Made by a program: the position numbers and the translations under genes. Below the pieces are notes generated by a model that saw only the letters and a list, made by a program, of their open reading frames with translations, was not told the origin of the DNA and made no database searches. 64,000 nucleotides of DNA from Escherichia coli (GTDB lineage Bacteria > Pseudomonadota > Gammaproteobacteria > Enterobacterales > Enterobacteriaceae): assembly GCF_003334315.1 (NCBI RefSeq), contig NZ_QOWR01000017.1; one strand, 5' to 3'. Positions 8,584 through 50,252 of the stretch are shown piece by piece (position 1 is the first letter of the stretch; every line of letters begins with the position of its first letter).

Positions 8584-10206
<1,623 letters not shown>

Positions 10207-12685: not shown

Positions 12686-13381
12686 ATGTCCATTGCGGTA
12701 ACCACCACCGATCCGACAAATACCGGCGTCAGTACCACCAGCAGTAGTTCGCTCACGGGCAGCAACGCCGCAGATTTACAAAGCAGTTTTCTGACTTTGC
12801 TGGTGGCGCAGCTGAAAAACCAGGACCCGACCAATCCAATGGAAAACAACGAGCTGACGTCGCAATTGGCACAAATCAGCACGGTCAGCGGGATTGAAAA
12901 ACTCAATACCACGCTCGGATCTATTTCCGGACAGATTGATAACAGCCAGTCGTTACAGGCCAGTAACCTGATCGGTCACGGCGTGATGATCCCCGGCACC
13001 ACTGTTCTTGCGGGAACCGGCAGTGAAGAAGGGGCTGTGACCACGACCACGCCGTTTGGTGTTGAGCTGCAACAGGCGGCAGACAAAGTTACGGCCACCA
13101 TCACCGATAAAAATGGCGCGGTTGTGCGCACCATTGATATTGGTGAACTGACCGCCGGAGTTCACAGTTTCACCTGGGACGGTACGTTGACTGATGGCAG
13201 CACTGCGCCGAACGGTTCTTACAATGTAGCGATTAGCGCCAGTAACGGTGGTACACAACTGGTTGCCCAGCCGCTGCAGTTTGCTCTGGTGCAGGGTGTG
13301 ATCCGCGGCAACAGCGGTAATACGCTGGATCTCGGCACTTACGGCACCACCACCCTCGACGAAGTACGGCAGATAATTTAA
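12686..13381 (+). CDS. flgD: flagellar hook cap (scaffold) protein FlgD
   Basis: 231-aa ORF in operon order. Confidence 0.95.
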   Translation: MSIAVTTTDPTNTGVSTTSSSSLTGSNAADLQSSFLTLLVAQLKNQDPTNPMENNELTSQLAQISTVSGIEKLNTTLGSISGQIDNSQSLQASNLIGHGVMIPGTTVLAGTGSEEGAVTTTTPFGVELQQAADKVTATITDKNGAVVRTIDIGELTAGVHSFTWDGTLTDGSTAPNGSYNVAISASNGGTQLVAQPLQFALVQGVIRGNSGNTLDLGTYGTTTLDEVRQII

Positions 13382-42716: not shown

Positions 42717-43076
42717 GTGGCAGAAGAAACTATATTCAGCAAAATTATTCGTCGTGAGATCCCCTCCGATATCGTCTACCAGGATGATCTGGTAACGGCG
42801 TTTCGCGATATTTCGCCGCAAGCGCCAACGCATATTCTGATCATTCCGAATATCCTCATTCCGACTGTGAACGACGTCTCAGCTGAGCATGAGCAGGCGC
42901 TGGGACGCATGATCACCGTAGCGGCAAAAATTGCTGAGCAAGAAGGTATTGCCGAAGATGGCTATCGTCTGATCATGAATACCAACCGCCATGGCGGACA
43001 AGAGGTTTACCACATCCATATGCACTTGTTGGGTGGCCGTCCGCTGGGACCAATGCTGGCGCATAAAGGTCTGTAA
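42717..43076 (+). CDS. hinT: purine nucleoside phosphoramidase (HIT family)
   Basis: 119 aa from GTG 42717 ([16 protein letters not shown]...), histidine-triad motif HIHMHLL. Confidence 0.9.
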
Positions 43077-49048: not shown

Positions 49049-49681
49049 TTATTTCACCAGTTCGGGCCATAAACGCAAAGTCGTTCCGGCAATCTGCATC
49101 AGTTTTTCCAGCGATGCACCTTCGCGTGCGCTGATCGACATCCCCTGAATAATACAATTAAGGAATTCTGCCAGATGTGTCACGTCACAGTGGGGCGGGA
49201 TTTCCCCGCGCGCTTGTCGTTGACATAAAAACTGCTGCAAAGTGCGCTCTTGCATCGCATGGCGTGATTTCAACGTATTGGCGATATCTCCTGAATCTGG
49301 GGAGAGGGTGGTGCAGTTGTTGATCATGAAGCAGCCTGCCGGGGTGTCTTTGCTGGTAAAGCAGTTGGCGATGGCAGCAAAATAGTCAGCCAGCGCAGAC
49401 TCCACGCTTTTCTCTTCACAAAACAGCTGTGCTTCATGCTTAGCGGCAAAACGATCGATATAGCGGTCGAGAACGGCACGAAATAACCCCTCTTTGTTGG
49501 TAAATTCCGCGTATAGCGTGGGCGCTTTGGCTCCGGTCGCTTCGACGAGGTCCGCAAGAGAAGTCGCTTCATAACCGTGTTGCCAGAACAATTTCATGGC
49601 CTTATCAAGCGCGGCATCCCTGTCGAACACTTTTGGGCGGCCACGGCTTTTTTTTACACATTGTGTTGAGTCAGTTGCCAT
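49049..49681 (-). CDS. comR: TetR-family transcriptional repressor ComR (YcfQ)
   Basis: ORF 49049..49759 trimmed to MATDSTQCVKKSRGRPKVFD (210 aa); N-terminal TetR HTH. Confidence 0.85.
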   Translation of the reverse strand: MATDSTQCVKKSRGRPKVFDRDAALDKAMKLFWQHGYEATSLADLVEATGAKAPTLYAEFTNKEGLFRAVLDRYIDRFAAKHEAQLFCEEKSVESALADYFAAIANCFTSKDTPAGCFMINNCTTLSPDSGDIANTLKSRHAMQERTLQQFLCQRQARGEIPPHCDVTHLAEFLNCIIQGMSISAREGASLEKLMQIAGTTLRLWPELVK

Positions 49682-49837
49682 GATGCCGTTGTACCTGGTG
49701 ACTGTGAATGAAAGGTTATTATAAAAATAATCACCTCCGTTCACCAGTCCAGATCCCATAAAAATAATTGCTTTCTATTTAACTGAAATTTAAAGATTTT
49801 TAAATTAATTAATGATTGTTATAAAAAATATCTTGTA

Positions 49838-49853
49838 TGTGATCCAGATCACA
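49838..49853 (+). promoter_or_regulatory. perfect CRP-type palindrome upstream of bhsA
   Basis: TGTGA-TCCAGA-TCACA read directly; sits 69 bp upstream of the bhsA ATG. Confidence 0.5.
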
Positions 49854-49921
49854 TCTATCATTTAGTTATCGATCGTTAAGTAATTGCTTACGACGTCATT
49901 CATCTGCATAAGGCCACTATT

Positions 49922-50179
49922 ATGAAAAACGTAAAAACCCTCATCGCTGCGGCGATTTTAAGCTCCATGTCATTTGCCAGCTTTGCGGCTGTCGAAGTTC
50001 AGTCAACGCCAGAAGGCCAACAAAAAGTCGGTACAATCAGTGCTAACGCGGGGACAAATCTGGGATCGCTGGAAGAGCAGCTGGCGCAAAAAGCGGATGA
50101 GATGGGCGCAAAATCTTTCCGTATTACTTCTGTAACCGGTCCGAATACCCTCCATGGAACAGCAGTAATTTATAAATAA
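49922..50179 (+). CDS. bhsA: multiple stress resistance protein BhsA (YcfR)
   Basis: 85-aa ORF with signal peptide. Confidence 0.9.
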   Translation: MKNVKTLIAAAILSSMSFASFAAVEVQSTPEGQQKVGTISANAGTNLGSLEEQLAQKADEMGAKSFRITSVTGPNTLHGTAVIYK

Positions 50180-50218
50180 GCATTAACCCTCATTAATGCC
50201 TGCTACTGCTGATTTTTT

Positions 50219-50252
50219 CCCCGCGACATGCCGTGTCGCGGGGATTTTTTTT
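50219..50252 (+). terminator. rho-independent terminator downstream of bhsA
   Basis: 10-bp stem ccccgcgaca/tgtcgcgggg followed by TTTTTTTT. Confidence 0.7.

Follow-up and report, generated by a model that had tools for sequence, protein, structure and literature searches.

In all probability the palindrome TGTGATCCAGATCACA, which lies in the spacer between comR and bhsA in the Escherichia coli DNA analysed here (a window of 64 kb), is a cAMP-CRP site positioned inside the sigma-70 core promoter of bhsA, and the effect of bound CRP there is most likely repression of bhsA. The CRP site and the repression of bhsA by CRP are already recorded in the literature and in databases. The geometry of the promoter, the negative response of bhsA to cAMP and the sign of regulation given in the databases agree on repression, and the site accompanies bhsA throughout the enterobacterial genera that we compared.

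The spacer measures 240 bp from the annotated comR start (49681) to the bhsA ATG (49922), and the last base of the palindrome is found 69 positions 5' of that ATG, just as the initial annotation of this DNA had placed it. Of 5426 complete E. coli genomes, 5425 have the comR/bhsA locus, and in 5259 of 5423 E. coli genomes a 60-bp core of the spacer (49826-49885) shows an identity of 99% or more. Compared with MG1655 over 2.5 kb, the window itself shows ~98.7% identity and so represents a different strain. At the other end of bhsA, positions 50152-50251 are identical to bhsB, a small RNA of the MG1655 annotation; this stretch overlaps the 3' end of bhsA and a GC-rich hairpin/T-run terminator that is common to the convergent gene ldtC.

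Identity and strength of the CRP site

The motif TGTGA-N6-TCACA occurs in perfect form at a single place in the window, and that place is TGTGATCCAGATCACA at 49838-49853; the match to both CRP half-sites is thus as exact as was originally claimed for it. The chance expectation is a mean of 0.05 perfect matches, with one match appearing in 5 of 100 dinucleotide-preserving shuffles. The two arms, ATGTGATC and GATCACAT, make up a perfect 8-bp inverted repeat with a gap of 2 bp. Haycocks et al. 2015 (PMC4287617, Table 1) list 106 further CRP ChIP-seq sites, and a symmetric position weight matrix that we derived from these gives TGTGATCCAGATCACA 21.40 bits of a maximum of 21.95. All 106 of the in vivo sites score below it (best 20.09, median 12.95 bits), and its core departs from the consensus of the matrix, TGTGATCTAGATCACA, in one central base of low information content. 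Both pentamers are perfect in only 8 of the 107 ChIP-seq sites, so the remark in the initial annotation that such a match is rarer than most functional CRP sites holds. Two GATCs are found in 4 of those 107 sites. The half-sites of TGTGATCCAGATCACA do each overlap a GATC, as had been noticed, and the two are present because the site matches the extended CRP consensus TGTGATC..GATCACA.

Two other explanations for the palindrome were considered and set aside. Its being a product of chance was ruled out by the shuffle counts together with the matrix score. A role as a hairpin or terminator was rejected, given a position upstream of the mapped transcription start site (TSS) and 8-bp arms separated by 2 nt.

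The runner-up to TGTGATCCAGATCACA on the CRP matrix within the window reaches 12.26 bits. The five next-best matches (11.3-12.3 bits) lie at 13036-13051, 38550-38565, 9393-9408, 42866-42881 and 26060-26075, and all five score just under the median of the in vivo ChIP-seq sites.

At the full 22-bp size of a CRP site, the bhsA sequence, GTATGTGATCCAGATCACATCT, agrees at 18 of 22 positions (counted by hand) with AAATGTGATCTAGATCACATTT, which we take to be the 22-bp CRP consensus. The synthetic consensus CRP site ICAP also has the sequence AAATGTGATCTAGATCACATTT. The 16-bp cores at bhsA and in ICAP are alike but for a C in place of T at a central position of little information, and each has two GATCs; the two sites differ in their flanks, which are GTA/TCT at bhsA and AAA/TTT in ICAP, and in that the bhsA site is a natural one that appears to be used for repression.

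CRP has been found on this sequence in vivo. In ETEC H10407, ChIP-seq of CRP gave a peak at 1274886 that was assigned to ycfQ/bhsA with TGTGATCTGGATCACA as its site, the reverse complement of TGTGATCCAGATCACA (PMC4287617 Table 1); these occupancy data are from ETEC and not from K-12, and the sequence of the site is identical. A compilation of EcoCyc/RegulonDB data lists bhsA in an incoherent type-2 feed-forward loop, with CRP as repressor and ComR as the second regulator (PMC6121374). The same study reports transcript levels in a cyaA tolC strain supplied with rising concentrations of cAMP, where the log2 values for bhsA relative to no cAMP were 0, -0.24, -0.42, -0.96, -1.09, -1.66, -1.74 and -1.94 (PMC6121374 supplementary file 1). 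The decrease in bhsA mRNA is monotonic and nearly four-fold. In addition, a CRP-engineering study profiled bhsA in a panel of 444 genes (PMC3585226), and a study of the Dam methylome labels it 'regulated by CRP-cAMP' (PMC5155068). No crp-bhsA or crp-comR row was found in the PPTP-seq supplements (PMC10505187), and the main text of the CRP SELEX paper (Shimada 2011) does not mention ycfQ, ycfR, bhsA or comR.

The initial annotation knew of no description of CRP control at bhsA and saw in the palindrome a possible unexploited regulatory input. Neither suggestion is supported: the same sequence is listed in PMC4287617, CRP repression of bhsA is compiled in PMC6121374, and the gene already stands on record as a CRP-repressed target. 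The identification of the sequence as a CRP site, on the other hand, is borne out by the matrix score, by ChIP-seq in ETEC, by the response to cAMP and by conservation.

Architecture and conservation of the bhsA promoter

The bhsA promoter has been mapped by 5' RNA-seq (Druzhinin et al. 2015, PMC4488433 Tables S5/S7/S8) and has the sequence atatcttgtatgtgatccagatcacatctatcatttagttAtcg from -40 to +4. Its +1 A is 54 nt 5' of the ATG and was mapped in late stationary phase only (PMC4488433), which leaves room for a further bhsA promoter that is active under other conditions. Since the TSS is at 49868, the CRP site falls between the -35 and -10 elements of bhsA (Table 1): the 16-mer shares one base, the last, with the -35 hexamer and stops 2 bp short of the -10 hexamer. 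The promoter was missed by a strict promoter scan because its -35 element matches at three of six positions only; it was placed by a relaxed scan in combination with the mapped TSS.

Table 1. Positions of genes, promoter elements, known or candidate protein-binding sites and GATCs in the comR-bhsA region of the window
Feature	Position	Strand	Remarks
comR (ycfQ) CDS, TetR-family repressor	49049-49681	-	210 aa
Candidate comR -10, invariant perfect TATAAT	49718-49723	-	Predicted TSS ~49711
Invariant A-tract TTATAAAAAA	49819-49828	+	bhsA -49 to -40
bhsA -35 hexamer TTGTAT	49833-49838	+	Placed from the mapped TSS; 17-bp spacer
Full CRP-size 22-bp site GTATGTGATCCAGATCACATCT	49835-49856		Sequence read directly
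CRP-binding 16-mer TGTGATCCAGATCACA	49838-49853		bhsA -30 to -15, centre -22.5
First GATC, promoter-distal half-site	49841-49844		Escherichia group only, 4/74 distinct spacers
Second GATC, promoter-proximal half-site	49847-49850		bhsA -21 to -18; 74/74 distinct spacers
bhsA -10 hexamer TATCAT	49856-49861	+	
26-bp imperfect dyad, probable ComR operator	49860-49885		Spans the bhsA TSS; invariant core TATCGATCGTTAA (49867-49879); dyad conserved on both arms
bhsA TSS, +1 A	49868	+	PMC4488433
Third GATC, in the putative ComR dyad	49871-49874		71/74 spacers
bhsA (ycfR/comC) CDS	49922-50179	+	85 aa

The comparative set consisted of 80 ComR loci, with one genome per species, from Escherichia, Citrobacter, Salmonella, Enterobacter, Lelliottia, Leclercia, Kosakonia, Trabulsiella, Yokenella, Phytobacter, Pluralibacter, Siccibacter, Cedecea, Buttiauxella and other genera. 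In each of the 73 loci with a divergent bhsA, which represent ~20 genera, the best match to the CRP matrix in the spacer is located 68-76 bp before the bhsA ATG, with scores of 12.7-21.4 bits. The 74 distinct spacers hardly vary in GTGA (49839-42) and GATCACA (49847-53) but do vary at 49843-46, and beyond Escherichia the complementarity of the two arms is limited to GTGA/TCAC. Complementarity that is restricted to GTGA/TCAC around a variable centre is the signature of CRP and not that of a TetR-type operator. Four loci have comR without bhsA as its neighbour, and upstream of comR they have neither a CRP site nor the ATCGATCG core; these elements therefore belong to the bhsA promoter.

In Kosakonia sacchari SP1 we found two comR-bhsA pairs on different contigs (loci L065 and L080, whose ComR proteins are 75% and 69% identical to the query). 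Both pairs have a strong CRP site of their own, equally far from bhsA; the duplication in that strain thus covers the regulatory module as a whole.

The elements around the CRP site show their own patterns of conservation. The -10 hexamer of bhsA is TATCAT or TATGAT in 63 of the 74 spacers; the -35 element in other genera is mostly TTGACG and is located one base further upstream, giving an 18-bp spacer. The A-tract TTATAAAAAA upstream of the -35 hexamer resembles a proximal UP element as far as its sequence can suggest, and it may offset the weak -35 of Escherichia (TTGTAT). In Escherichia the sequence of the -10 region (49854-49861) is TCTATCAT, in which -14 is T and -13 is C; in most other genera the base at -13 is T. 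The T at -14/C at -13 context is favoured by sigma-S promoters. At the start site, the base at -1 is T (49867) and the TA at -1/+1 is invariant in 74 of 74 spacers. About 70-85% of bhsA transcripts in stationary phase begin at -1 through primer-dependent initiation with a UA nanoRNA (PMC4488433); the invariance of the TA may be due to primer-dependent initiation, to an operator, or to both.

The imperfect dyad that spans the TSS is the probable operator of the TetR-family protein ComR, to judge from its sequence. It is conserved in ~20 genera, and its left edge, 62 bp before the bhsA ATG, fits the ComR site ~60 bp upstream of comC that is cited from Mermod 2012 in a review (PMC10141476). The literature examined does not define the ComR operator at base resolution. 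The bhsA promoter was de-repressed by knock-down of comR in PPTP-seq data (PMC10505187 supplement).

These features suggest a mechanism for the control of bhsA by CRP. When cAMP is high, a CRP dimer would be bound at the site, which takes up the -35/-10 spacer, and its presence there would keep RNA polymerase off the promoter, resulting in repression of bhsA. We infer from this arrangement that repression is direct and operates through steric occlusion of RNA polymerase; the response of bhsA to cAMP could in part be indirect, for example via ComR or RpoS. ComR, at its probable 26-bp operator over the TSS, would be a second and independent repressor, such that CRP would provide an input of carbon status and ComR an input of copper or stress. 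With CRP and ComR both repressing, bhsA would therefore be held off by two independent repressors.

Promoters at which CRP represses from a site over the core promoter include cyaA P2 and gal P2. They resemble bhsA in having a canonical TGTGA-N6-TCACA in or over the -35/-10 region and in the lowering of transcription by cAMP-CRP. The bhsA promoter differs from them in that its site is wholly in the 17/18-bp spacer (centre -22.5), comes close to the ideal consensus and has a probable ComR operator beside it, directly over the TSS. The class I and class II promoters, exemplified by lac (-61.5) and galP1 (-41.5), share with bhsA both CRP itself and the DNA motif, whereas at bhsA the site is at -22.5 and the response to cAMP is negative.

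Alternative roles for the palindrome

A perfect CRP motif upstream of bhsA might be expected to serve as a class I or class II activator site and so to provide an unexploited positive CRP input, a position that the initial annotation thought possible on condition that transcription begins close to the gene. The mapped TSS, 54 nt before the ATG, instead places the centre of the motif at -22.5 within the core promoter, away from the -41.5 of class II and the -61.5, -71.5, -82.5 or -92.5 of class I promoters. The relaxed scan detected nothing like a -10 hexamer 3' of 49861 from which class I or class II spacing, such as -41.5 or -61.5, would result. Given also that bhsA mRNA falls as cAMP rises and that CRP is entered in the databases as a repressor here, activation is already largely refuted, and we regard it as extremely improbable. 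A role as the operator of ComR, in place of or besides that of a CRP site, seems only slightly less so. Operators of TetR-family proteins are palindromes near the promoters that they regulate, ComR represses both bhsA and itself, and the 8-bp arms of TGTGATCCAGATCACA are perfect in E. coli. Outside Escherichia, however, just GTGA and TCAC are complementary, which suits CRP and not a TetR dimer; CRP occupies the palindrome in vivo; and the dyad at 49860-49885, with its invariant core over the TSS, is a much better candidate. Conserved symmetry of both arms, which is a feature of TetR operators, is seen in that dyad and not at 49838-49853. It is thus highly unlikely that TGTGATCCAGATCACA is a ComR operator.

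Another view is that TGTGATCCAGATCACA acts mainly on comR, with CRP either repressing that gene or activating a minus-strand promoter that starts at ~49805 in a class-II-like manner. The feed-forward type to which bhsA has been assigned entails repression of comR, too, by CRP in EcoCyc/RegulonDB, the ChIP-seq peak was given to ycfQ as well as to bhsA, and ycfQ mRNA is raised in glucose-limited and in stationary cultures (PMC5974110). A weak minus-strand -10 sequence, AATCAT (49817..49812), would put the site at ~-40.5. This hexamer is poorly conserved (0.64), however, and the best candidate for the comR -10, TATAAT (49723..49718), puts the CRP site at ~-134.5; moreover, the CRP site is gone from the loci where comR lacks bhsA as a neighbour. 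We consider a main action on comR to be unlikely, although less so than activation of bhsA or operator function for ComR.

The candidate comR -10 is part of an invariant block, ATTATAAAAATAAT (49717-49730), the reverse complement of which contains TATAAT and which is situated ~37 bp upstream of the comR ATG. A conserved CCAGT is found nearby at 49744-49748. The region around ATTATAAAAATAAT is likely, on these sequence features, to be the comR core promoter; the supplements to the 5' RNA-seq study list no TSS for comR (PMC4488433).

GATC sequences and Dam methylation

Of the two GATCs in the half-sites, the second occurs in every spacer and its mirror counterpart, the first, in only 4 of 74 (Table 1). 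The preference of CRP is weak at the second GATC: GA precedes 21 of 77 perfect TCACA half-sites in vivo, and G at position 10 of the site contributes 0.61 bit. Thus the preference of CRP itself does not fully explain why this GATC is invariant. A need for one half-site of maximal affinity could do so. The second and third GATCs are 24 bp apart and bracket the -10 element and TSS of bhsA, and the comR-bhsA spacer of the window has four GATCs in total. The spacer also contains a direct repeat, TCCAGATCCCAT and TCCAGATCACAT, with its copies 95 bp apart. The GATC of the upstream copy is present in 1 of the 74 spacers, and we treated the repeat as a chance occurrence because its upstream copy is not conserved.

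Published methylome data bear in part on the proposal in the initial annotation that protein binding and methylation could interfere with each other at the GATCs in the half-sites, and the relevance of these GATCs to Dam is supported. One non-coding GATC at bhsA shows a SMRT signal that shifts with the age of the culture on both strands (ZK126 CP017979, 1072523/4), with q-values of 0.05-0.07 (Westphal et al. 2016, PMC5155068 Table S2), and it is among 66 sites in the genome with an age-dependent signal (PMC5155068). When we sought to place the flagged GATC by way of W3110 coordinates and the distance to the yccS GATC, no exact match was obtained, the nearest offsets being 10-40 bp off. In the literature searched, that methylome survey (PMC5155068) is the only source in which bhsA/ycfR appears together with Dam or SeqA, and a study of undermethylated promoters in Salmonella does not mention the locus. 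It is reasonable to suppose that CRP and Dam could interfere with each other at bhsA, where bound CRP may hinder Dam at the first and second GATCs.

A GATC within the binding site of a regulator is also a feature of systems in which the regulator protects the GATC from methylation, namely CRP at mtlA and at other sites in methylase-protection and SMRT surveys, Lrp at pap, OxyR at agn43 and Fur at sci1. The GATC upstream of bhsA, with its population-level change in methylation, is tabulated alongside mtlA in PMC5155068. The Lrp/pap, OxyR/agn43 and Fur/sci1 systems have heritable ON and OFF states and methylation-sensitive binding; the comparison with bhsA is based on the placement of its GATCs and on an apparent change in methylation at one GATC.

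A more elaborate scheme would make the bhsA promoter a Dam-sensitive switch, in which occupancy by CRP or ComR blocks methylation and in which methylation or hemimethylation, for example via SeqA, feeds back on binding or on promoter strength. The presence of the second GATC in every spacer despite the weak preference of CRP, the near-universal third GATC at its distance of 24 bp across the -10 element and TSS, and the inclusion of a GATC upstream of bhsA among the age-dependent SMRT sites are consistent with such a switch. The q-values in that survey are modest, the Salmonella study is silent on the locus and the invariance of the second GATC could reflect a single half-site of maximal affinity; we therefore give the switch a low probability, somewhat below that of a main action on comR. 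It is, to the same slight degree, conceivable that the second and third GATCs have been kept for a Dam-dependent layer of control, for example through methylation blocked by occupancy or through hemimethylation or SeqA after replication. Were such a layer to exist, it would explain the conservation of the second GATC beyond the base preference of CRP.

Our findings confirm that catabolite control reaches bhsA, a gene with roles in stress, biofilm and copper permeability, by way of a very strong CRP site. What they add is an explicit anatomy of its promoter, in which a UP-like A-tract is followed by the -35 element, the CRP site in the spacer, the -10 element, the TA start and a ComR-type dyad. 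This arrangement is conserved over ~20 enterobacterial genera, and the element travels with bhsA and not with comR. The additional conservation of the second GATC is the sole added point that could open a new question, that of Dam-linked control of a stress promoter.
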